From an uncultured bacterium (GTDB lineage Bacteria; Chlamydiota; Chlamydiia; Chlamydiales; FEN-1388), in contig CAZASK010000009.1 in NCBI GenBank assembly GCA_964487845.1, positions 5 through 64,004 on the forward strand: DNA of 64,000 bases. The letters are read 5' to 3'. The translations under genes and the position numbers were made by a program. How positions within the stretch are numbered: the stretch's first letter is position 1; each line of letters starts with the position of its first letter. The notes beneath the pieces were generated by a model. It was not told the origin of the DNA and searched no databases. It was given only the letters and a program-made list of their open reading frames with translations. Positions 4,303 to 19,473 of the stretch are shown here, piece after piece.

Positions 4303-5242
4303 ATTTTTCTTTTGGGAAAAATGGAACAATACTTGTTTTTTGTATTATTTCCCTTGTGGTGCAGTTTTTATTCACAAGTACATCCGTAAAGTTTTGCATT
4401 GTCTTGATTTGTTTTGGTTCGTGATTGACATCATATAACGTAAATTGAGTGCCATCCTTTTGGATAAGGAAGGCGTGTTTGGTCGTCTTATAGGTTTGTG
4501 TTATTTGAAAGGTGACACGGTCATTACATTTTGAAAACACTCTGATTCTTTCTAGAATGGCATTACCATTTCGCGATATCAACTTTTCGCCTCTGTTGGA
4601 TCCAATAAATCCATCATTTATATTGGCTTTTATATTAGTTTTAAATTGACACCATTTCATTTTTGATGGGAACATGTGCGCTACTTTCTTTTCCATTTTA
4701 TTGAGCTCTTTGAGTGCGCTGTTTTTTTTCTCTGTATCTAAGAGGTTTCTAGCGCCTTTTCGTAGTTTTTTTATGGCAACCGTTATTTTTATTTTCCATG
4801 ACTCGAATGTAGATTTTCCTTCGATTTTGTGAGAAGTTATTTGAGTATTGCTATAGGGTATATTGTGAGTGTGTGAAAGTTTTTTGATCGATTCGCGCAT
4901 GTTGATGTACGCATCTTCGCATGCTTCATAATACGCAAATTTCGCTAAGTGATTACATTGTAGTGCAATTGCTTGCTTGGCTGATTCATGTATGTTTGCT
5001 ACATCTTGGAATTGTTTTTCTTGGTTATTGAGTATTTTTAATAACCAAAACTTGCTGTACCCATAACATGCGCCTTCGCTAAGTTCCAGATGTACATTTT
5101 GGAGTACTTTGAAGTAATAGGCAAAATTACAGTCCAAGTCGAGTGTGGCTAGATTTTCTTTCAATTGAGTATATGTCGTGGTGTTGTTTAGTGTATATTG
5201 AAATGTCACGTGGCTGCTTTGATGTTTTTGGATTATATTCAT
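4301..5242 (-). CDS. hypothetical protein; candidate papain-like (YopT/C58-type) cysteine protease
   Basis: 314 aa counted from ATG 5242 (MNIIQKH). The track ORF extends to 5407 but that part overlaps the upstream methyltransferase. Motifs EGACYGYSKFWL (candidate Cys) and KHAFLIQKDGTQFTLYDVNHE (His..Asp-x-Asn) resemble the C58 Cys/His/Asp arrangement. Confidence 0.45.
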   Translation of the reverse strand: MNIIQKHQSSHVTFQYTLNNTTTYTQLKENLATLDLDCNFAYYFKVLQNVHLELSEGACYGYSKFWLLKILNNQEKQFQDVANIHESAKQAIALQCNHLAKFAYYEACEDAYINMRESIKKLSHTHNIPYSNTQITSHKIEGKSTFESWKIKITVAIKKLRKGARNLLDTEKKNSALKELNKMEKKVAHMFPSKMKWCQFKTNIKANINDGFIGSNRGEKLISRNGNAILERIRVFSKCNDRVTFQITQTYKTTKHAFLIQKDGTQFTLYDVNHEPKQIKTMQNFTDVLVNKNCTTREIIQKTSIVPFFPKEK

Positions 5243-5253
5243 TAGATTACCCG

Positions 5254-5847
5254 TTACTTTATTTTTTGAACAAGGATAAGTGAGGGAGCCTCTCTTCGAT
5301 TGGTAAAACGGAAAAAAAGACAGCGCCACTGTTTTTGATCTAACTTTTCGGTAAAAGAAATGAGAGCTTTTTCTTCTTCTGCGCCTTCCGTATGCCCTGG
5401 ATAGCAAGTAATAGAGACCACTCCTTCATCTTGTAGACATTCGAGTGATGCTGCAAGTGCTGCTAGTGTTGTCTGTGGCATTGTTTTGATGATTTTATCG
5501 CTGCCAGGAAGGTATCCTAAATTATATACGATGAGAGCTGCTTTTCTGCTAGCGAGTAGGGTGGTCATCGAGCTGTGGCAGTTTTCATGTAATTCAATAC
5601 ATTGCTGTTTTGCTGTATCAAGCTGCTCTTGAAGAAGTTTTTTCGTAGTACATATGGCTTGCGGTTGTATATCAATTGCAATGACAGTCCCTTTGCCATC
5701 TTGTAGTGCAAGATGAGCCAAGAAGAGTGTGTCGTGGCCATTTCCGCAGGTCGCATCAACTACAATATCTCCAGGATGCACAAGATTGCTCCAGAGCGTG
5801 TGCCCTACTGAAACGGTAGATCTTAAAATAGAGTCACTGTTTTTCAT
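5254..5847 (-). CDS. class I SAM-dependent methyltransferase (putative rRNA methylase family)
   Basis: SAM motif I VVDATCGNGHDTLFLA, followed by IDIQ and YNLGYLPG. ATG 5847 (MKNSDS) is preferred over 5880. Confidence 0.75.
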   Translation of the reverse strand: MKNSDSILRSTVSVGHTLWSNLVHPGDIVVDATCGNGHDTLFLAHLALQDGKGTVIAIDIQPQAICTTKKLLQEQLDTAKQQCIELHENCHSSMTTLLASRKAALIVYNLGYLPGSDKIIKTMPQTTLAALAASLECLQDEGVVSITCYPGHTEGAEEEKALISFTEKLDQKQWRCLFFRFTNRREAPSLILVQKIK

Positions 5848-5893
5848 TGCATTCCAACGTAAATTCAGATATTGTATCACCTGTCCTATTTTC

Positions 5894-5967
5894 GGGGTAT
5901 TAGCTCAGTTGGTTAGAGCGCCACGTTGACATCGTGGAGGTCAGCTGTTCGAGTCAGCTATATCCCA
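5894..5967 (+). tRNA. tRNA-Val (anticodon GAC)
   Basis: Hand-folded cloverleaf. Acceptor GGGGTAT/ATATCCC, anticodon stem CCACG/CGTGG with loop TTGACAT, T-arm GTTCGAGTC. Confidence 0.9.
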
Positions 5968-6026
5968 ATTACACATACGAGGTATCGATAGAGGAAGCTT
6001 TTGAAAAAAAGCTTCCTCTACAATCC

Positions 6027-7304
6027 ATGATAGACACACAAGTAAGATCCTATTCAGCTTGTCTTCTAGCAGCAGCCATGCTTGAGGTATTTCCAGATGT
6101 AAAACCCATTCAGTGGCGTGCCGACTCTTTTTCGTTTTCTTATGACTTTGCAGTTCCTCATGTTTTTGGTAGCGATGTCTTGTTTTTGTTGGAAGAAAAA
6201 ATGCGTCAGATAAAAAAGATGCATTTTGAGACAAAGAGTATGATGCGTGAAAATGCTGTTAGTTTTCTCCAGAGTAAAAGGAGAGATTTGCAAGCATCTA
6301 TTGTGAATGCACTCGATCAAAATATAGTAGATGTGGTGATAAGTGAAAGTGCTTTGGATGTAGCGTTTATGCCAGTTGCAGAGCATGAGGATGTGTCCTT
6401 TTCCTTGCTCGAATCGCAGAGTCGATTGGTCGCTTATACCGATTTAGGTGATCTTATTTTGTGGAGAATATCAGGTGTTGCCTTTCGTGAGAAAAAAGAG
6501 CTAAAGGAATATATCAAGGATTATAAAGAGGCTAAGAAGCATGATCCAGTGGCTCTGGCAGAAAAGCAGCGTCTCATTACATTTGTAGATGAATCTCATG
6601 TGTGGCTTTCTGCTGGGTTAGGGGTTCTAGCATCTCTAAAGACTTTGTGGAGAAAGGGGATCGAATACCTTCGGCTTGAAGAGGTAAAATCCTATCCATC
6701 TGACAACCTGAGAAAATCACTTGAGCCATTTGAAGAGAGCGCAGCGTATCCATGTTTGACTTCGGTGCAGCCAATTCATCAAGCGCTTCTTCTCAAAAAA
6801 TCACGCATCGCTCAAATACAAGAACGCGTTATAGCGCTTCCAGAATATAATCAAGATGGGCTTTTTTCTACTTCCACATTTGTATCTGATACGATTCATA
6901 TAGAAGTTCATGAGGGATTGGTGGAAGATGAGGTTCGTACATTTGCTTGTCTATCCCAAGCTTTGTATCGTCATCTTGGCTTTGAGTCTATAGCAATTTT
7001 GAAGTGCCCAAAACAGAGTCATTATACAAAGGCCTTTGAGAATGCAGTGCCTGATGCTGTGAAAATAGCGTCCAGACGACTAGGTCCTCGCTTGGAAATG
7101 TGGATAAAAGATCAGAAGCATAGGCCGTGGCTTGTTTCTTTCATTGAGTTAGACATAGAGATGATGCGGCCGAGGAAAAGACCTATTTTTGGGGCCTCTT
7201 TTTTTTACTCATGCGAGCGTATTTTAGCGCTGATGCTTGAAAAAAATCGAGGTCGTTTGCCGCAAACCGCAGATATCCAAGAATTTACTTTCTCTCATAA
7301 TTGA
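6027..7304 (+). CDS. threonyl-tRNA synthetase-like protein (editing N2 domain plus degenerate class II core; no TGS or anticodon-binding domains)
   Basis: Collinear with ThrRS by eye. YSACLLAAAMLEVFPDV aligns to HSCAHLL..., FVSDTIHIEV to FTQDDAHIF, GPRLEMWIKDQKHRPWLVSFIELD to GPKIEF..D..R.WQCGT.QLDF, and FFYSCERILALMLE to ILGS.ERFIG.L.E. It occupies the thrS position upstream of infC. The start was moved to ATG 6027 because 5934 overlaps tRNA-Val. Confidence 0.6.
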   Translation: MIDTQVRSYSACLLAAAMLEVFPDVKPIQWRADSFSFSYDFAVPHVFGSDVLFLLEEKMRQIKKMHFETKSMMRENAVSFLQSKRRDLQASIVNALDQNIVDVVISESALDVAFMPVAEHEDVSFSLLESQSRLVAYTDLGDLILWRISGVAFREKKELKEYIKDYKEAKKHDPVALAEKQRLITFVDESHVWLSAGLGVLASLKTLWRKGIEYLRLEEVKSYPSDNLRKSLEPFEESAAYPCLTSVQPIHQALLLKKSRIAQIQERVIALPEYNQDGLFSTSTFVSDTIHIEVHEGLVEDEVRTFACLSQALYRHLGFESIAILKCPKQSHYTKAFENAVPDAVKIASRRLGPRLEMWIKDQKHRPWLVSFIELDIEMMRPRKRPIFGASFFYSCERILALMLEKNRGRLPQTADIQEFTFSHN

Positions 7305-7387
7305 TGATTCGAGTACTATTATTGAGATCGTAGAAAATATGACTTTGCAGTTGTGCAAGTAATTTTAAAGAGGAGTGACACAAACGC

Positions 7388-7900
7388 GTGAGAGTAAATC
7401 ACGAAATCAGAGCTCGGGAGCTGAGAGTTATTAGCGCCACGGGAGAACAGTTAGGAATATTACCATTTGCTCAGGCGCTTCAACTCGCACAGGGGCAAGG
7501 GCTTGACTTGGTGGAAATTGTAGCGACGGCTACGCCGCCAGTTGCAAAGATCGTCGATTATGGCAAGTTTCGATATGAGCAAACCAAGCGTGAGAAGGAA
7601 AATAAAAAAGCCCAGCACCAAGTGAAGGTGAAAGAAATTAAGGCAGGATTAAACATTGGAGAGAATGATCTCAATGTGAAAATCGACCACGCAAAAGAAT
7701 TCTTAGAAGCTGGTAATAAGGTAAAAGTAACGATTATGTTTCGAGGTCGTGAGATGGCACATCCTGAGATGGGTACTAAGCTTGCAGCAAAGATTGTTAC
7801 GGCTCTAGAAGAGGTGGGTATGGTAGAACTGAGCCCAAAACAGCTCGGCCGTAATTTACACCTTGTTTTAGCGCCTTGTGCGAAAAAGAAAAAAACATAG
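7388..7900 (+). CDS. infC: translation initiation factor IF-3
   Basis: RVNHEIRARELRVISATGEQLGI and DYGKFRYEQTKREKE are IF-3 hallmarks. The start is GTG, because an in-frame TGA at 7376 excludes earlier starts. AGGAG at 7371. Confidence 0.9.
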   Translation: MRVNHEIRARELRVISATGEQLGILPFAQALQLAQGQGLDLVEIVATATPPVAKIVDYGKFRYEQTKREKENKKAQHQVKVKEIKAGLNIGENDLNVKIDHAKEFLEAGNKVKVTIMFRGREMAHPEMGTKLAAKIVTALEEVGMVELSPKQLGRNLHLVLAPCAKKKKT

Positions 7901-7970
7901 GGATATTTTGTTGCGAGATAGAGAAATATGTGTTATCATGCTAGCATCTTTTCACTGAAGGAGTGATACC

Positions 7971-8165
7971 GTGCCAAAAATGAAGACTGTAAAGGCAATC
8001 AAAGCGAGATTTAAAGTGACCGCGACAGGTAAGTTAAAACGAGGCCGCGCTGGGAAACGTCATATTCTGACAAAAAAGTCATCGAAGAGAAAGCATCACC
8101 TTGAAACGCCTGCTTTTGTGCATCCTACGAAAGCTGAAACATACAAGTTGTTGATCGGCGCATAA
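7971..8165 (+). CDS. rpmI: 50S ribosomal protein L35
   Basis: 64 aa, basic. [27 protein letters not shown] start with GAAGGAG upstream. Confidence 0.9.
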
Positions 8166-8208
8166 TAAGCGTCTGGAAAAAAATGAAGTGTAATTGGAGT
8201 AAAATACA

Positions 8209-8565
8209 ATGGTTAGAGTAACAAATGCCGTCGCTACGCTCAAAAGCAAGCGTCGCATGCTCAAAAATGCAAAAGGGTTTTGGGGTGATCGTAAAAACCA
8301 TTTGCGCATCACACAAGAAGCAGTTGTTCGTGCAATGGCCTACAACTATACCCACAGAAAGCTAAAAAAACGTGATTTTCGTGGTCTATGGATTGCAAGA
8401 CTCGCAGCGGCGACAAAAATCAATGAGATCTCTTACAGTAAGTTTATCTATGGTTTGAAGAGAGCAAATTGTGAATTGAACCGCAAAGTGCTTTCTGAGT
8501 TAGCTATTCACGATCCGCAAGCTTTTGCAGCGGTAGTGGCTACAGCGAAGCAAGGACTTGTTTAA
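8209..8565 (+). CDS. rplT: 50S ribosomal protein L20
   Basis: MVRVTNAVATLKSKRRMLKNAKGFWG ... RGLWIARLAAA ... typical L20. Confidence 0.95.
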   Translation: MVRVTNAVATLKSKRRMLKNAKGFWGDRKNHLRITQEAVVRAMAYNYTHRKLKKRDFRGLWIARLAAATKINEISYSKFIYGLKRANCELNRKVLSELAIHDPQAFAAVVATAKQGLV

Positions 8566-8622
8566 AAGTTTCTCCGCTTCTGTCAAAAGAAGTAGAGTTC
8601 GCGTAAACTTATGTTTATCAGA

Positions 8623-8646
8623 CCCGAGAATTCTCGGGTTTTTTTA
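8623..8646 (+). terminator. rho-independent terminator or attenuator between rplT and pheS
   Basis: CCCGAG-AATT-CTCGGG hairpin (8623..8638) followed by T7 (8639..8645). Confidence 0.6.
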
Positions 8647-8676
8647 TTCAACATCCCCTTACCAAGAGGGTACATC

Positions 8677-9705
8677 ATGCAGCAATCAATCGACACTATT
8701 AAGCAGCAATTCGAGCAAGAGCTAGCGCAGATTCATGCACTGAAAGACGTAGAAGCGCTCAATGTAAAATATTTGGGTAAAAAAGGTGTTATTGCAGACC
8801 AGATGCGTTTTTTGCGTGATGTAAGCGCTGAAGACAAGCCGCGTTATGGTAAGTTATTTAATGATCTGAAGGTAGGAATAGAAGCAGCTCTTGAGGCAAC
8901 AAAAAGCCGCCTTACACTTCAAGAAGAATCAGCAAGACTTGACTTAGAAAAAATTGACGTAACGCTGCCTGGTAGAAGGGGACACGTAGGTTCGAAGCAT
9001 CCCATTACGCAAGTGATGGATGAGATGATTTCGATCTTTGTAGAGATGGGGTTTTCGGTAGAGTCAAGTCCTGAGATCGAGACAGATTATTATAATTTTG
9101 ATATTTTGAACTTTCAGCCAGATCATCCTGCAAAGGACATGCAAGATACCTTTTATGTGGCGCCTCATGTATTGCTGAGAACTCATACAAGCAATTCACA
9201 AGGAAGGGTCATGGAGAGTTCTGAGCCACCTTTTCGCTTTATCTCGCCGGGCCGTTGCTTTCGTAATGAAACTGTTTCTGCCCGTTCACATGTCTTCTTT
9301 CATCAAATCGAAGGCTTGTATGTGGATGAGGGAGTATCGCTGCAGGATATGATGGCCACGTTAAATCTCTTTTTGCAAAAATTTTTTAAAAAACAGGTTT
9401 CCACGCGCTTTCGACCAAGCTATTTTCCCTTTGTTGAGCCAGGATGTGAGGTAGATATTGGCTGTTTTCTTTGCAATGAGCAGGGATGTGCAGTCTGCAA
9501 GCATTCAGGTTGGCTTGAGATTTTAGGATGCGGCATGATTCATCCACAGGTGCTGCGCAATTGTGGCATAGATAGTGAAAAGTATACTGGTTTTGCGTGG
9601 GGTATGGGTATTGAAAGAGTACTTATGCTGCAGTATGGAATTCCTGATATCCGAATTCTTTCTGAAAATGACCTTAAATTTTTATCACAGTATAGGTCAG
9701 TGTAG
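8677..9705 (+). CDS. pheS: phenylalanine--tRNA ligase alpha subunit
   Basis: Class II motifs: HPITQV, FRFISPGRCFRNE, GFAWGMGIERVLM. ATG 8677 is preceded by AAGAGGG. The track start at 8611 would place the terminator hairpin inside the CDS. Confidence 0.9.
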   Translation: MQQSIDTIKQQFEQELAQIHALKDVEALNVKYLGKKGVIADQMRFLRDVSAEDKPRYGKLFNDLKVGIEAALEATKSRLTLQEESARLDLEKIDVTLPGRRGHVGSKHPITQVMDEMISIFVEMGFSVESSPEIETDYYNFDILNFQPDHPAKDMQDTFYVAPHVLLRTHTSNSQGRVMESSEPPFRFISPGRCFRNETVSARSHVFFHQIEGLYVDEGVSLQDMMATLNLFLQKFFKKQVSTRFRPSYFPFVEPGCEVDIGCFLCNEQGCAVCKHSGWLEILGCGMIHPQVLRNCGIDSEKYTGFAWGMGIERVLMLQYGIPDIRILSENDLKFLSQYRSV

Positions 9706-9708
9706 TCT

Positions 9709-10578
9709 ATGCGTTTAGAGTGGATCGTAAGCCAAGAGATGAGTGGCAAAAAATTGATTGATTTTCTGAAGGCAAGTCATGAAGATAAATCGCTTTCTTT
9801 AAGACAAATCAAGCGGTGGGTAGATAAAGGGCTTTGCAGCGTCAATGGCACGTGTCAGCGCTTTAGCGCCAAGCCTATTGCATTTAGAGACCGTGTTACT
9901 CTTGTGCTACCAGAGGAAAATGAAAAGCGTATACAATTTGATGAAAGCAATATCTTGTATGAAGATGACTCTGTTTTGGCGTACAATAAGCCTATGGGTT
10001 TAGCTTGTGATCCTAAAAGCATCGCGGCCTTTTTTCCGAATACCAAGCTTCTTCTTGCTCATAGACTTGATAAGGACACAACAGGTGTGGTTTTATTGGG
10101 AAAGACTCCTGAGATTCGTGATGCAATCATGGATCAGTTCAAGGTTGGAAAAATCAAAAAAGAGTATCTTGCAATCGTTGATCATACTATTATCAAAAAC
10201 AAGGGATCTATTGTAAAGCAGCTTGCGCCTAAACGTCACTACCAAGGACAGACTGTATGGTCCGTAGTACAAGAAGAGGGGCTTTATGCTCGCACCGACT
10301 GGGAATGCGTCAAAAAGGCAAAGACTGCAAGCTTGGTGCGTTTATTCCCGCTGACAGGACGCACTCATCAGATACGTGTACACATGAGCTCTATAGGTCA
10401 TCCTCTGCTAGGAGATCGCCAATATGGCGGCCATGCCAGCCGAGCATACGAGTCGTGGAGTTATTTTTTACATGCAGAGAAGATTTCATTTGTTCATCCG
10501 ATCACCCATCAGCGAATTTTGATAACTGCCCCACTGCCGAAGCAATTTCAAGACGCGGTTTTCGCTATTTTTGGATAG
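9709..10578 (+). CDS. RluA-family 23S rRNA pseudouridine synthase
   Basis: S4-like N-terminus. Catalytic motif HRLDKDTTGVVLLGK. C-terminal LTGRTHQIRVHM. Confidence 0.85.
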   Translation: MRLEWIVSQEMSGKKLIDFLKASHEDKSLSLRQIKRWVDKGLCSVNGTCQRFSAKPIAFRDRVTLVLPEENEKRIQFDESNILYEDDSVLAYNKPMGLACDPKSIAAFFPNTKLLLAHRLDKDTTGVVLLGKTPEIRDAIMDQFKVGKIKKEYLAIVDHTIIKNKGSIVKQLAPKRHYQGQTVWSVVQEEGLYARTDWECVKKAKTASLVRLFPLTGRTHQIRVHMSSIGHPLLGDRQYGGHASRAYESWSYFLHAEKISFVHPITHQRILITAPLPKQFQDAVFAIFG

Positions 10579-14909: not shown

Positions 14910-14967
14910 CTTTTGATGTTTTTTATATATGTGCTATAGTTATGTAAAAGTTGAATATAGAGTATAT

Positions 14968-17900
14968 ATGCAGCCGATAAAAAATTTGCAGCAACTTACT
15001 CTGGATACGCTTGTTGAGCAGGTGTCTGAAGGAAAGTTTTCTCCTAAAGGTATTAGTGGTCCCATAGCCAATAAAATTGTGGAAGCTGCTTTTAAAAAAT
15101 TAAAAGAAAACGAGGCGCTTTCTGAAGAGAGATGGAGGGGGATATCGTGCACTGAACTGAACACCAACGCTTTATCTTCTACAAACATAAAAATTTTATG
15201 TAAATTATGGGGGATGGAATTAAAAAAACTGGGTATTTCAAGCGGAGATTTTAAGGATTTTATTTTTACGTCTGATCCATTTCCAAAATTGGAGTCGTTG
15301 CATATATGCAACCCAAGAGATTTAACAAAAGAGAGTTTGCTAAAATTATGCGAAAAAATACCAGAAACATTGCAAGAATTTGTTGTTACTGAGTGTGAGC
15401 ATCTCGACGATGAGGTTATAGCCATTCTTTCAAAAAAATGTCCTCATTTAAAGATATTAAACGTGAGCGGGTATAACAAGGTTACGAAAGTTGGATCACA
15501 TTTCAAAGAACTTCAAGAACTAGATGTGTCTCGTACACAATTTACGGAAAAATCAATAGAAGAACTTGGAGGGTATCAACTCGATTCTATTAATTTATCT
15601 TACACTTCGATTGAAGATAAAGGGATTGAACTCCTCTCACAAAAATGTCCTGAATTAAAGATATTACATCTGTGCGGTTGTAAAAAGGTTACGAAGGTTG
15701 GATCAAATTTCAAAAAACTGCAGGGACTTGATGTATCTTATACAAAGTTTACGGATACATCAATAGACGAGCTAAAGGAGAATCAACTTAATTCTATTAA
15801 CATATCTCATACTCAGGTTGACAACACAGGTGTTAAATCGCTAGCGAATAGTAAAAATGGAAATACTCTTGAAGCATGTGTGATGAATGGCTGTTCTTCG
15901 ATCAGTGAATTGCCGGAGAGTTTTTCAAAAATGAAGTTCTTGGGTATTGCAGGTACAAAGATCACAGCACTACCTCGTAATATGTGCTCAGCAACAACTA
16001 TTGATGGCGTTCCGATGCTGCAGCAGGCGATGATGGATAAAAACGAATCGCTTTTTTCTTTTTTACTAGAAAGTTTGAATGAGAAAGAACTGATTGCTCA
16101 GGATAGGAGTGGAAATACAGCTCTTCATTATGCTTGTAAGCAGAAACAAAAAACAAATGTACAAGCACTAATTGAAAAAATGGATCAGTCAACATTAGGC
16201 ATTCAGGATCACGATGGGAAATCGGCTCTCAACCTCGCTATCGAATATAGGCTGACGGACATTGCCGTACAGCTTATTCATAAAATGAATCCTGACGATT
16301 TGAGCCATCAAGATAAAGAATTAGGACGACCTCTGTGGCTTGCAGTCATGTTTGACATGGACGATGTTGCAGCTGCTTTGATTGAAAAGATGCATTCTAA
16401 AAACTTGCAGCTTCAAGGCAAGAATGGACTGACACCTCTACATTTAGCTTGCCTGAAGGGCCGAAGTAATGTTGCAAAAGCCTTGATTGAAAAAATGAAT
16501 GCATCGGCGCTAAGCATACAGGATAAAGAGAAGGAATTGGCACTGCATTATGCTATTGGAAAGGACATGGACCATGTTGCAGTAGAGCTTATTAAAAAAA
16601 TGAATCCCCAAGATTTGAAGCATCGAAACAATGATGGTGATACAGCTCTCCACCTCGCATGTAAACGTAAGAACCCAGAAATTGTAAGTGCTTTGATTAA
16701 AAAAATGGATCAGTCAACATTAGCTATTCAGGATCACGATGGGAGTACAGCTCTAGAATTGGCGATTGACTTTGGACTAGATGATATTGCGGGCGATCTT
16801 ATTAAAAATATGAATTCTGAAGGTTTGAAGAAGCAAGACAAGTATGGTCGTACAGTCCTTCATACAGCTTGTCTGTATAACAGAGTAGAAGTTGCTCAAG
16901 CTTTGATTAAAAAAATGGATCAGTCAACATTATGTATCCAGAATAAAGATGGACAAACAGCTCTGCACAACGCGATTGAAAATAAGGCTAGCGACGTTGC
17001 AATAGCCCTTATTGAAAAAATGAACTCTAAAGATTTAAAACTGCAAGATTGCAATATGGATACAGCGCTGCACAAGGCGGTTTGGAAGAATAAAAACGAC
17101 GTTGCAATAGCCCTTATCGAAAAAATGAACTCTAAAGATTTAAAGTTGCAAGATAATAGAGGGGACACATGCTTGCATATGGCGTGTGCGTATACGCGAG
17201 TAGAAGTAGCGAAATTGCTGATCGAAAAAATGGATGAATCGGCACTTGGTATTCAAAATAAGGAAGGACGGCTAGCGCTGTACTGGGCGATTGAAAATAA
17301 GCATAGCGACATTGCAAAAGCTCTTATCCAAAAAATGAATCCTAAAGATTTAAAACTCCAAGGTAAGAAAAAACGAACGCCTCTTCATCATGCTGCTGAT
17401 AAAGAATTTGACGACATTGCTATGGAGTTGATTCAAAAGATGGGGTTTGAGGGTTTAAAGATTCAAGATTATCAAGGTTGTACGCCTCTTCATTTAGCTT
17501 GCCTGAAGGGCCGAAGTAATGTTGCAAAAGCCTTGATTGAAAAAATGGATGAATCGGCGCTAAGCATACAGGATAAAAAGAAGGAATTGGCACTGCATTT
17601 TGCTGTTGGCAATGACATGGATGATGTTGCAGTAGAGCTTATTCAAAAAATGAATCCAGACGATTTGAAGCATCAAAACGATGATGGTGATACAGCTCTT
17701 CATGAAGCTTGCCGAAGAAGTCGTGTAGAAGTCGCGAAATTACTGATCGAAAAAATGGATGAATCGACACTTGGTATTCAAGGGCGGGGAAAAAAGACAG
17801 CCTTGCATCTTGCTATTGAAAAGAAGTTGGGCGATGTTGCGGTAGCACTTATTGAAAAGATGCGCATTGAAGACTTGAGCCTACAAGATAGTAAGAAGTC

Positions 17901-17985
17901 AAATGCTCTATGTTACGCTTTGGAATACAAATTACAAGATGTTCTCGATGTTCTGATACCGAAAGTCGAATCTGAAGATAAATAA
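14968..17985 (+). CDS. large LRR plus ankyrin-repeat protein (eukaryote-like, effector candidate)
   Basis: N-terminal third carries FBXL/AMN1-type cysteine-containing LRRs (CPxLKILxxxGCxKVT repeated). The remainder is about 20 ankyrin repeats (G.TALH.A......VA.ALIEKM). Near-identical internal DNA duplications are present. Confidence 0.85.
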   Translation: MQPIKNLQQLTLDTLVEQVSEGKFSPKGISGPIANKIVEAAFKKLKENEALSEERWRGISCTELNTNALSSTNIKILCKLWGMELKKLGISSGDFKDFIFTSDPFPKLESLHICNPRDLTKESLLKLCEKIPETLQEFVVTECEHLDDEVIAILSKKCPHLKILNVSGYNKVTKVGSHFKELQELDVSRTQFTEKSIEELGGYQLDSINLSYTSIEDKGIELLSQKCPELKILHLCGCKKVTKVGSNFKKLQGLDVSYTKFTDTSIDELKENQLNSINISHTQVDNTGVKSLANSKNGNTLEACVMNGCSSISELPESFSKMKFLGIAGTKITALPRNMCSATTIDGVPMLQQAMMDKNESLFSFLLESLNEKELIAQDRSGNTALHYACKQKQKTNVQALIEKMDQSTLGIQDHDGKSALNLAIEYRLTDIAVQLIHKMNPDDLSHQDKELGRPLWLAVMFDMDDVAAALIEKMHSKNLQLQGKNGLTPLHLACLKGRSNVAKALIEKMNASALSIQDKEKELALHYAIGKDMDHVAVELIKKMNPQDLKHRNNDGDTALHLACKRKNPEIVSALIKKMDQSTLAIQDHDGSTALELAIDFGLDDIAGDLIKNMNSEGLKKQDKYGRTVLHTACLYNRVEVAQALIKKMDQSTLCIQNKDGQTALHNAIENKASDVAIALIEKMNSKDLKLQDCNMDTALHKAVWKNKNDVAIALIEKMNSKDLKLQDNRGDTCLHMACAYTRVEVAKLLIEKMDESALGIQNKEGRLALYWAIENKHSDIAKALIQKMNPKDLKLQGKKKRTPLHHAADKEFDDIAMELIQKMGFEGLKIQDYQGCTPLHLACLKGRSNVAKALIEKMDESALSIQDKKKELALHFAVGNDMDDVAVELIQKMNPDDLKHQNDDGDTALHEACRRSRVEVAKLLIEKMDESTLGIQGRGKKTALHLAIEKKLGDVAVALIEKMRIEDLSLQDSKKSNALCYALEYKLQDVLDVLIPKVESEDK

Positions 17986-17987
17986 AA

Positions 17988-19016
17988 TTACGTAAGAAGG
18001 TTGCTATATGTTTTCAGTGCAATGTCAACTACACCATTGGGCTCAAACATGGCAATGAAATGTGTATACATCTCAAGCCTATTTGAGTGTTGATCATCAG
18101 GTTTTTTTATAAGCAGAGCCTCCGCATATTCAGCAATATCTTCTATAATTCTTTCACATCTATAGTATGCCAAGAGAGGTAAATTGATATCTGAACTTCC
18201 ATATCCTTGATAAAACGCGACTTCCTCTTCGGGGATATTCCATGCATTTCCCACGCCGCCACCGATAAACATGAGATCTCGCTCTTTGGGAGCTATGATA
18301 GGCTCATCCCAGTCTACTATGTAGAAGCTGCCATTTTCTTGTATCAACACATTGCCGGCGTGAATATCGGAATGGCAGAGCACATATTGTACTTTCTTGG
18401 TTTTGATGCTATTACATAGCTCTTCCGCTTGATTTATGAGTGTATGAATCAATGCTCTCTGCTCTCTCATCGAGTCTAAAAAATTTTGCGATATCTGATC
18501 CTTAGAAGTGGAGCGCTGTTGAATAGCAGCATCGAGTGCACGCACAGCTTGCCTATATTTCGAGGAATATGATTCATGTCTTATATTTTGAAGATCGGGG
18601 GTATGTATATCGATTTCATGAATACGCCTGAATGCCTTGCCGAGCATCGTCCACTGCTGGTGTGTTAATTTTTGAGTAAAGCCATTTTTCCCTTCAATAA
18701 ATGGGTACATAACGATGGCATATTGATCGAGGTGTAGGGCAAAATGACCATGGATAGTTTTGATTGGTGAGATGATCTGCTCTACTCCAGCATCATCTAA
18801 AAGAGAGAGGATATGAGTAGGTGTCTTGCGTTCATTGCCATATTTTAATTTTACAAAGTAGAAGAGATGGTCAGAAGCGTGTGCCTTATATGTTGCTGCA
18901 TGAATGTCTGCCCCTTCAGCAAGTGGTGTAATGGCTTGTACATCAATCGCATAGTGAGCTCGCAAATGATCGATCAGCTGTGTGTCTAAGGAAACATGTA
19001 TAGGTAATTTATGCAT
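17988..19016 (-). CDS. aminoglycoside/choline-kinase-type phosphotransferase (APH family)
   Basis: Catalytic loop LCHSDIHAGNVLI followed by FYIVDWDEPIIAPKERDL. Start set at ATG 19016 (MHKLPIH). The upstream 90 codons in the track look non-coding. Confidence 0.75.
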   Translation of the reverse strand: MHKLPIHVSLDTQLIDHLRAHYAIDVQAITPLAEGADIHAATYKAHASDHLFYFVKLKYGNERKTPTHILSLLDDAGVEQIISPIKTIHGHFALHLDQYAIVMYPFIEGKNGFTQKLTHQQWTMLGKAFRRIHEIDIHTPDLQNIRHESYSSKYRQAVRALDAAIQQRSTSKDQISQNFLDSMREQRALIHTLINQAEELCNSIKTKKVQYVLCHSDIHAGNVLIQENGSFYIVDWDEPIIAPKERDLMFIGGGVGNAWNIPEEEVAFYQGYGSSDINLPLLAYYRCERIIEDIAEYAEALLIKKPDDQHSNRLEMYTHFIAMFEPNGVVDIALKTYSNLLT

Positions 19017-19152
19017 ATGTTTTTGTGAATAGTATGAGATGGTTTTCGAAAAATGTTTTTGAGTAATATGGCGTTCTGTGTTATCAACACATGCTTGCAA
19101 ACTAAGCGTAGCGGAACATATGTATTTTTTTAAGTATTTTGTAGAAGAGTAG

Positions 19153-19473
19153 ATGAATAATGATGAGATAATGAAAAGAGTCTCTATTTTATTGACAGTA
19201 CAAAAGGCTCTATGGGGAGAAGTAACGCCAAATCTTCGAGCTGTTTTTATTGGATGGTCTGATTTAACAGATGACTGTTCTATCAAGCTATATTTTGTTT
19301 ATGATGGGGAAATTTCAGATGATGATAAAGATAATGGAGAATGTGTTACTGCAGAAGTTTTAGCAATTTTTTCTGATAATGACGTGGCAGCAGAATTTTT
19401 GCAAATTGATTATCCGAATAAAATACCAGCTCTAGGAAACGAGGGTATCTATTTTCGGAAAGAAGATTATTAG
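19153..19473 (+). CDS. small acidic hypothetical protein (106 aa)
   Basis: Protein-like composition. No motif recognised. Confidence 0.4.
   Translation: MNNDEIMKRVSILLTVQKALWGEVTPNLRAVFIGWSDLTDDCSIKLYFVYDGEISDDDKDNGECVTAEVLAIFSDNDVAAEFLQIDYPNKIPALGNEGIYFRKEDY

Follow-up and report, generated by a model that had tools for sequence, protein, structure and literature searches.

What has become of a gene that sits in the place of thrS, directly ahead of infC, when the protein it encodes has neither of the active sites expected of a threonyl-tRNA synthetase (ThrRS)? The question is raised by a 64,000-nucleotide stretch of DNA from an uncultured bacterium of the chlamydial lineage FEN-1388 (GenBank assembly GCA_964487845.1, contig CAZASK010000009.1), the whole of which is referred to here as the window. 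At positions 6027–7304 of its forward strand, the window carries a coding sequence for a 425-amino-acid protein that an initial annotation, made without database searches, had read as a degenerate ThrRS paralog. Homology, predicted fold and the loss of both active sites bear out this reading. We consider it very likely that the gene product is a non-catalytic pseudoenzyme that is maintained by selection.

Ancestry and active sites of the window protein

The window protein is a true homolog of ThrRS that shares the fold of its N2 (editing) domain and class II core, and the similarity extends far beyond chance. It matches the NCBIfam model TIGR00418 (thrS) with an E-value of 1.6e-14 and 53.7 bits, which is below the equivalog cutoff of 383.65, and it matches the Pfam model tRNA-synt_2b at a sub-threshold level (E = 0.05, 14.1 bits versus a cutoff of 29.3). 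A phmmer search against the sequences of the Protein Data Bank (PDB) recovered the ThrRS entries 6vu9 (E = 5.6e-10), 1nyq and 1qf6, with E-values up to 7e-5, and a profile built from 40 members of the protein family described below matches 6vu9 at E = 1.6e-108. The structure prediction proposed in the initial annotation points in the same direction. An AlphaFold2 model of the window protein, computed from a 40-sequence family alignment, has a mean pLDDT of 90.2 and a pTM of 0.87. The best matches to this model in a Foldseek search of the PDB are the full-length bacterial ThrRS structures 1qf6_A (E = 4e-25), 6vu9 and 1nyq, with E-values ranging to 1e-22, and ThrRS entries that contain the catalytic domain alone rank below them.

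Along its length, the protein is collinear with the N2/editing domain and the class II core of ThrRS. The N2-like part is encoded by positions 6027–6485 (approximately residues 1–153), as judged from the alignment to 11 real ThrRS proteins, the secondary structure of the AlphaFold2 model and the PDB alignments. It is followed by linker helices, by a reduced class II catalytic-core-like part encoded by positions 6576–7262 (approximately residues 184–412) and by a 13-residue tail. The TGS domain is absent. The anticodon-binding domain (ABD) is also absent, with no match to the Pfam model PF03129, and the protein ends 13 residues past the sequence GRLP, which aligns to the GAFP located directly before the ABD of real ThrRS. 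The alignment thus confirms the earlier description of a protein that is collinear with the N2/SAD domain and class II core, lacks TGS and stops at the ABD boundary. The core has also lost approximately 75 of the residues present in real ThrRS, most of them from the segment that links motif 1, a region with the sequence KSYP, to motif 2.

The fate of individual residues was established from a global MAFFT alignment of the window protein, the 11 real ThrRS proteins, which represent diverse phyla, and 15 bridging family members. Positions are given in what we take to be the numbering of E. coli ThrRS, which is consistent with a constant offset of +7 to the reference P0158 in the core. At the editing site, H73, H77, C182 and H186 are replaced by S8, C12, A113 and V117, respectively, and D180 is kept as D111. 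Two ligands of the zinc triad are lost (C334 to Q248 and H511 to G389), so that the H385 equivalent (H291) is the only one left. All three motif 2 positions are changed (R363 to I269, E365 to L271 and R375 to S281), as are the five positions of the threonine pocket (D383 to T289, Y462 to L352, K465 to R355, T482 to F372 and Q484 to E374). In motif 3, G516 is replaced by Y394 and the Glu-Arg pair is kept as E397 and R398; R520 is the ATP-binding position of this motif. The initial annotation had correctly read the editing HxxxH as YSACLLA and the motif 2 region as ALPEYNQDGLF, without fRxE.

In total, two of 12 synthetic-site residues and none of the four editing His/Cys residues are kept in the window protein, whereas each of the 11 reference proteins has all 12 synthetic-site residues. 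The Pfam model PF07973 is not matched. Neither intact catalytic and zinc-binding residues (2/12 and 1/3, respectively) nor a lack of significant similarity to ThrRS (E = 1.6e-14 with TIGR00418) was therefore found, these being two of the outcomes that the initial annotation had named as contrary to its reading. On the basis of these replacements, the window protein, a ThrRS descendant, is predicted to be unable either to aminoacylate or to edit. The losses at the synthetic, zinc and editing sites rule out both a working ThrRS and a trans-editing factor. The N-terminal half has the tRNA_SAD-type fold of AlaX and of archaeal ThrRS editing paralogs, but the HxxxH/CxxxH residues that define these editors number zero of four in the window protein and at most three of four in any member of its family.

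The gene is kept by purifying selection. Its closest relatives, P0002 (422 amino acids, 50% identity, no ABD) and P0003 (508 amino acids, 47% identity, with ABD), are both intact open reading frames (ORFs), and the stop codons of the ABD-less genes P0001 and P0002 were verified. In three pairwise Nei-Gojobori comparisons, which include one pair of two ABD-less genes, the proportion of non-synonymous differences (pN) is 0.33–0.38 versus a saturated synonymous proportion (pS) of 0.72–0.74, and the corresponding ratio of non-synonymous to synonymous substitution rates (dN/dS) is approximately 0.13–0.22. A decaying pseudogene is ruled out by the low dN/dS, by the intact ORFs at 47–50% identity and by the confidence of the AlphaFold2 model. 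The earlier suggestion of a pseudo-synthetase kept for a non-canonical role agrees with these results and with the existence of a large family of equally dead proteins.

The family of ThrRS-like paralogs

When 1.84 billion cluster representatives were searched with the family profile, 4225 matched at E ≤ 1e-3, of which 504 reached E ≤ 1e-30, and the window protein is the top match of this profile. HxxxH is lost in all of the best 150 representatives (of clusters at 50% identity; 319–612 amino acids), where the typical replacement is R-x-x-A-A-E-L-L-A. A second search yielded 105 new proteins that separate into 45 'dead' (≤4/12 synthetic-site residues) and 60 'live' (≥10/12) sequences, with none between. 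The family comprises at least about 200 sequence clusters. Among the 154 members that were scored, between zero and six of the 12 synthetic-site residues are kept (median 2), and none retains all three zinc ligands. In other words, the scores are strictly bimodal, with the family at or below 6/12 and real ThrRS at or above 10/12. Some features of the core persist: the Thr-Pro pair of motif 1 is kept in 62–73% of the family, and the Glu-Arg pair of motif 3 is kept in most members (approximately 86% in one alignment and 72–73% in a stricter one). Profile searches of metagenome contigs with P0001 and with a three-member clade alignment gave no confirmed relative.

In a neighbour-joining (NJ) tree, a single branch divides the family from the 11 real ThrRS proteins. 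The window protein was left out of that tree because of its poor hmmalign coverage, and it nests within the family in a separate, rough NJ tree. The mean NJ distance is 0.75 inside the family versus 0.52 among real ThrRS from different phyla. With bacterial ThrRS (TIGR00418; 1qf6, 1nyq, 6vu9), the family shares common ancestry, the fold of N2 and the class II core, the gene slot before infC-rpmI-rplT-pheS and, in most members, the ABD. It differs in the destruction of both the editing and the synthetic sites and in the absence of TGS, whose alignment columns have an occupancy of zero. The window protein differs further in lacking the ABD, the approximately 75 core residues and two of the three zinc ligands.

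The ABD is present in 109 of 155 aligned proteins (approximately 70%) and absent from 46, some of whose short forms may be truncated gene calls. Where it is present, the ABD is under the tightest constraint: when the frequency of the commonest residue is divided by that in real ThrRS, the ABD reaches 0.89, compared with 0.71 in N2 and 0.66 in the core. ABD residues that are invariant in ThrRS are kept in approximately 95% of the members that bear the domain. Specifically, the equivalent of E600 is Glu in 106 of 108 members and that of R609 is Arg in 104 of 108, these being the positions taken to read G35 of tRNA-Thr in the 1qf6 complex. The domain is carried by the relatives P0003 and P0004. 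Because most family members keep a highly conserved ABD, its absence from the window protein is best read as a secondary, lineage-specific loss. Judged from these alignments, the family looks like a ThrRS without its chemistry yet with recognition of the anticodon arm, and the lineage of the window protein appears to have given up both.

Reduction has gone furthest in a short subfamily (P0006, P0032, P0049, P0083, P0130 and P0153; 319–404 amino acids; positions 72–1052 in locus L003), which has lost the ABD and most of the motif 2 region. A CxGPH-like motif is still found in three of these six proteins (P0006, P0032 and P0153), and P0006 matches the Pfam model tRNA_SAD. What every family member appears to retain, at a minimum, is the N2 half.

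Most members come from metagenome contigs. The few that carry an organism name are all labelled Chlamydiae or Chlamydiota, in agreement with the expected chlamydial origin, with the exception of P0180, whose label is 'Verrucomicrobia bacterium'. This protein corresponds to loci L015 (GCA_018240065.1, JAFEGH010000007.1) and L016 (GCA_044223355.1), where the NCBI label Verrucomicrobia is accompanied by full tRNA-Val/dead-thrS/infC synteny. Either this metagenome-assembled genome (MAG) is mislabelled, or the family reaches beyond Chlamydiota within the Planctomycetes-Verrucomicrobia-Chlamydiae (PVC) group. On current membership, the family looks like a chlamydial one, or at least one of PVC bacteria.

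Names in public records are mixed, and include 'hypothetical protein [Chlamydiae bacterium RIFCSP...]', 'His/Gly/Thr/Pro-type tRNA ligase C-terminal domain-containing protein [Chlamydiota ...]', 'threonine--tRNA ligase [Chlamydiota bacterium]' and, in IMG, 'threonyl-tRNA synthetase'. For example, P0176 (588 amino acids, from an NCBI Chlamydiota MAG) is named 'threonine--tRNA ligase' and keeps two of 12 synthetic-site residues. The IMG members P0014, P0017, P0043, P0073 and others likewise bear ThrRS names. No family member keeps more than six of the 12, and this naming is a systematic misannotation. A search of the full-text literature found no account of a catalytically dead ThrRS paralog in bacteria and no published name for the family. 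A review of aminoacyl-tRNA synthetase (aaRS) duplications lists, for ThrRS, the T1 and T2 proteins of Anabaena and the eukaryotic ThrRS-L alone (PMC9437257).

Gene order and the window locus

The position of the gene is as informative as its sequence. A family gene is located directly upstream of infC in every locus that was retrieved, nine independent ones in all, namely the window, L001, L002 (where the downstream ORF was not checked against Pfam), L003, the P0004 contig, L011, L013, L014 and L015/L016, the last two being one locus in two assemblies. L013 is located on a contig of 2.22 Mb (ERZ25039553:contig_44315) and L014 on one of 3.12 Mb (ERZ25039523:contig_17084), and a further member, P0191, is encoded on a contig of 2.28 Mb. 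Wherever the contig extends, rpmI, rplT and pheS come after infC. On the other side, a tRNA-Val(GAC) gene lies directly 5ˊ of the family gene in the window, L011, L013, L014, L015 and L016, with gaps to the start codon of 59 nucleotides in the window, 8 in L011, 13 in L013, 24 in L014 and 2 in L015/L016. Several representative proteins open with translated tRNA-Val sequence, which extends this tRNA-adjacent pattern. The rRNA methylase gene that lies upstream in the window is also the upstream neighbour in L011, L013 and, further off, L015.

In four loci, the end of the family gene, stop codon included, runs 4–17 nucleotides into infC as called from a TTG start (positions 1049–1052 in L003, 6445–6455 in L013, 6754–6764 in L014 and 6565–6581 in L015), which suggests translational coupling to infC in these lineages. 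Since in many members the ORF begins 2–24 nucleotides past the tRNA and in these four loci ends on the infC start, it is almost certainly transcribed together with tRNA-Val.

A genome that has a real thrS shows the same layout. In L012, tRNA-Val(GAC) at positions 7074–7148 is followed after approximately 850 nucleotides by a gene called as thrS at 8001–10256 (P0157, 751 amino acids) and then by infC, rpmI and rplT, where rpmI is inferred from a 67-amino-acid ORF without a Pfam match. P0157 carries a false N-terminal extension of approximately 107 amino acids that holds the tRNA-like translation EVAGSNPA, and ARAGORN calls no tRNA at this site. Because the real thrS of L012 has this layout, the dead gene sits where thrS ancestrally lay, down to the tRNA, and the window gene has inherited the place of thrS in the cluster tRNA-Val(GAC)-thrS-infC-rpmI-rplT-pheS. 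The nine family loci and L012 thereby substantiate the claim of the initial annotation that the gene keeps its ancestral position before infC. No other thrS was found within the 64-kb window. ThrRS is essential and the window protein is unable to carry out the reaction, and therefore a working thrS is presumably carried by another copy elsewhere in the genome.

We take CT_833 of Chlamydia trachomatis to be infC, in which case no gene lies between CT_832 and CT_833, and the dead ThrRS gene may have disappeared entirely from the Chlamydiaceae. CT832 was considered as the C. trachomatis ortholog and was ruled out, as CT_832 is named nusB (PMC13524934). In L011, nusB and murB are located approximately 5 kb upstream of the dead ThrRS gene.

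In the window itself, tRNA-Val(GAC) spans positions 5894–5967 of the forward strand (called by ARAGORN; 66.8 bits with the Rfam tRNA model) and ends 59 nucleotides before the ThrRS-like gene, which is what the initial annotation had described as a gene that directly follows a tRNA-Val gene. A longer ORF with a GTG start (5934–7304) overlaps the tRNA with its first 34 nucleotides. Because this longer frame runs into the tRNA gene, the ATG at 6027 is taken as the real start, and it is matched by the N-termini of relatives (MIDTQVRSYS in the window and MQSVRSYS in L001 and L002). Between the tRNA and this ATG, RNA folding predicts a hairpin at positions 5989–6020 with a perfect 14-bp stem and a GAAA loop (ΔG of −22.8 kcal/mol, z = −7.0 versus shuffled sequences). 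It lacks a U-tail and is not found in the other family loci, where the spacer between tRNA and start codon is 2–24 nucleotides. This hairpin may serve in processing, in stability or in translational control. An Rfam scan of positions 5000–10000 matched the tRNA alone, and no T-box or other known leader was found in this interval.

Downstream, a spacer of 83 nucleotides separates the stop codon of the ThrRS-like gene from infC (7388–7900; Pfam IF3_N and IF3_C), which has a GTG start and a GAGGAG Shine-Dalgarno sequence at 7370–7375. Next on the same strand are rpmI (7971–8165; Pfam Ribosomal_L35p), rplT (8209–8565; Pfam Ribosomal_L20) and pheS (8677–9705; Pfam tRNA-synt_2d and Phe_tRNA-synt_N). 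Just past rplT, a GC-rich, terminator-like hairpin with a T-run is located at 8620–8641, inside the longest pheS ORF, which begins at 8611. As the hairpin falls within 8611–8676, the true start of pheS is probably the ATG at 8677, and pheS may be transcribed separately from rplT. The next genes past pheS encode, according to Pfam, a pseudouridine synthase and a glycosyltransferase of the GT9 family. Upstream of tRNA-Val, the S-adenosylmethionine-dependent putative rRNA methylase is encoded divergently on the reverse strand (5254–5880; Pfam rRNA_methylase, E = 1.6e-41). Further along the window, a 1018-amino-acid ankyrin-repeat protein (14929–17985), which resembles the Legionella Dot/Icm Ank effectors at a level below cutoff, adjoins a 432-amino-acid APH(9)-like phosphotransferase (17988–19286). 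Both are typical for symbionts of eukaryotic cells.

Candidate functions and competing explanations

The explanation that we favour, with a probability of about 0.5, is that this selected, dead ThrRS derivative has a role based on binding. The protein would act via binding rather than catalysis, and we see an even chance that this binding, to RNA or to protein, is linked to translation. In ABD-bearing members, the ligand would most likely be the anticodon arm of tRNA-Thr or an mRNA mimic of tRNA-Thr, and these proteins would be non-catalytic sensors or regulators tied to the IF3/L35/L20 operon. The window protein, with the N2-core scaffold alone, would carry out a reduced version of this role, in which it would probably dimerise through its class II core and might also contact an acceptor arm or a partner protein.

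Such a function would be analogous to the repressor activity of E. coli ThrRS, split off from the enzyme. Repression in E. coli depends on the ABD, the N-terminal part of the protein and dimerisation, and is not expected to need catalysis. Apart from TGS, these are the parts that are best kept in the family. The E. coli enzyme represses its own mRNA via anticodon-like hairpins (PMC11088916), whereas the candidate regulator here is a dedicated dead paralog rather than an enzyme, and the window protein has no ABD. A regulator that binds tRNA-Thr or an operator is accordingly a tentative model for the family, with the odds against it. A still more specific version, in which the family would be a catalysis-free 'tRNA-Thr reader' that senses tRNA-Thr, or binds an mRNA mimic, with its intact ABD and, as a product co-transcribed with tRNA-Val and coupled to infC, tunes the synthesis of IF3, L35 and L20, with the ABD-less forms as later derivatives that act via the N2-core scaffold, is speculative and unlikely.

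There is precedent for this kind of change. HisZ (a paralog of HisRS that serves as a regulatory subunit of ATP phosphoribosyltransferase), SLIMP, the HisRS-like domain of Gcn2 and the catalytic-like domain of the PheRS beta subunit are all class II aaRS paralogs that have lost aminoacylation and have a binding or regulatory role. HisZ, which pairs with HisG, resembles the window protein in lacking an anticodon-binding domain. The analogy is functional only; the parent enzymes are different, and no gene for a partner enzyme is apparent near the window gene.

Several points weigh against a binding-based role, and against the regulator model in particular. Approximately 30% of the family is without the ABD, a character that changes state at least 28 times on the rough NJ tree, and the window protein is itself without the domain on which the regulator model relies. 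No binding partner, RNA target or operator was identified, operator-like anticodon hairpins not having been systematically sought. The ThrRS-like gene is also the fastest-evolving of its cluster: the window and L001 share 47% identity in this protein versus 62–94% in its neighbours (infC 75%, rpmI 94%, rplT 82%, pheS 73%, and 62% and 67% for two others). Moreover, several lineages have shed more of the core, down to 319 amino acids, which fits a weak or shrinking function. The isoelectric point of the window protein, 6.5, is unremarkable and uninformative on RNA binding.

The rapid evolution of the gene and the repeated loss of domains (TGS in all members, the ABD in approximately 30% and parts of the core in the forms of 319–404 amino acids) could be expected of a cis-acting relic, that is, a co-transcribed and translationally coupled 'leader ORF' that brings ribosomes to a weak TTG or GTG start of infC while its protein, which has no function in trans, erodes. 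Such an ORF would be maintained chiefly because the expression of infC-rpmI-rplT runs through it. The start of the ORF 2–24 nucleotides past tRNA-Val in several loci, and the overlap of its stop codon with the TTG of infC in L003, L013, L014 and L015, are also in keeping with this idea. However, an ORF that served only as a spacer should have dwindled to well under 319 amino acids and should not have held its fold or its RNA-binding residues at an NJ distance of 0.75, whereas the fold is predicted with high confidence and the ABD residues are approximately 95% kept in 108 members. The dN/dS of 0.13–0.22, measured at saturated dS, speaks against erosion as well. Finally, infC in the window has its own Shine-Dalgarno sequence and an 83-nucleotide spacer, so that coupling is unneeded there, yet the ORF is intact. 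We therefore regard the relic as a doubtful explanation, albeit one that deserves some weight. We also think it rather unlikely that the protein associates with the real ThrRS, or with a different class II enzyme, as a subunit or partner that heterodimerises via the class II core and modulates activity, stability or tRNA delivery. The retained fold of the core, the retained motif 1 region (the Thr-Pro pair in 62–73% of the family, KSYP in the window protein) and the motif 3 Glu-Arg pair of most members would suit such a partner, and duplicated ThrRS proteins are known from Anabaena, where T2 takes over at low zinc (PMC9437257). Most members, however, have a strongly conserved ABD, which suggests that the ligand is RNA and not protein.

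A role in the ribosome or its assembly is improbable. The mitochondrial ribosomal protein mL39 (MRPL39) is a non-catalytic component of the translation machinery that derives from the N-terminus of ThrRS and is not known to have a class II core, and it illustrates how this fold can become a structural part. The family profile detects mL39 chains via the N2 region at E-values of approximately 5e-6, and the gene is located inside an operon for IF3, L35 and L20. This likeness goes no further than the descent of both N2 folds from ThrRS. The mL39 chains are described as containing TGS, whereas the family consists of N2 and the core, with or without the ABD, and has no TGS; the isoelectric point is acidic to neutral. 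Least probable by far is that the protein is the working ThrRS of the organism, or a free-standing editing factor, that employs an unusual active site. The ThrRS names given to family members in public records, and the absence of another thrS from the 64-kb window, are what would be expected of a working enzyme. Against it stand the replacement of 10 of 12 synthetic-site residues, two of three zinc ligands and all four editing His/Cys residues, the absence of approximately 75 core residues and the entire ABD, a TIGR00418 score of 53.7 bits versus the cutoff of 383.65, and the bimodal distribution of scores, with ≤6/12 on one side and ≥10/12 on the other. The binding-based role of a selected, non-catalytic ThrRS derivative thus remains the explanation that we prefer.

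The window protein is an ABD-less member of a large, aaRS-derived pseudoenzyme family, apparently chlamydial, that has no name of its own in the annotations examined and is partly misannotated. The ThrRS names in IMG and NCBI can distort marker-gene counts, metabolic reconstructions and aaRS phylogenies of Chlamydiota. As an evolutionary example, the locus illustrates how an original thrS gene has turned into a pseudoenzyme, with the essential function presumably residing on another copy. Pseudoenzymes derived from aaRSs, such as HisZ, SLIMP, mL39 and the HisRS-like domain of Gcn2, have repeatedly been a source of new regulatory biology. The present family is apparently conserved over environmental Chlamydiota, which include relatives of major pathogens, and is embedded in a tRNA-Val/IF3/L35/L20 operon. 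If the 'tRNA-Thr reader' proposal were true, the enzyme and repressor functions of ThrRS would have been split into two genes in these obligate intracellular bacteria.

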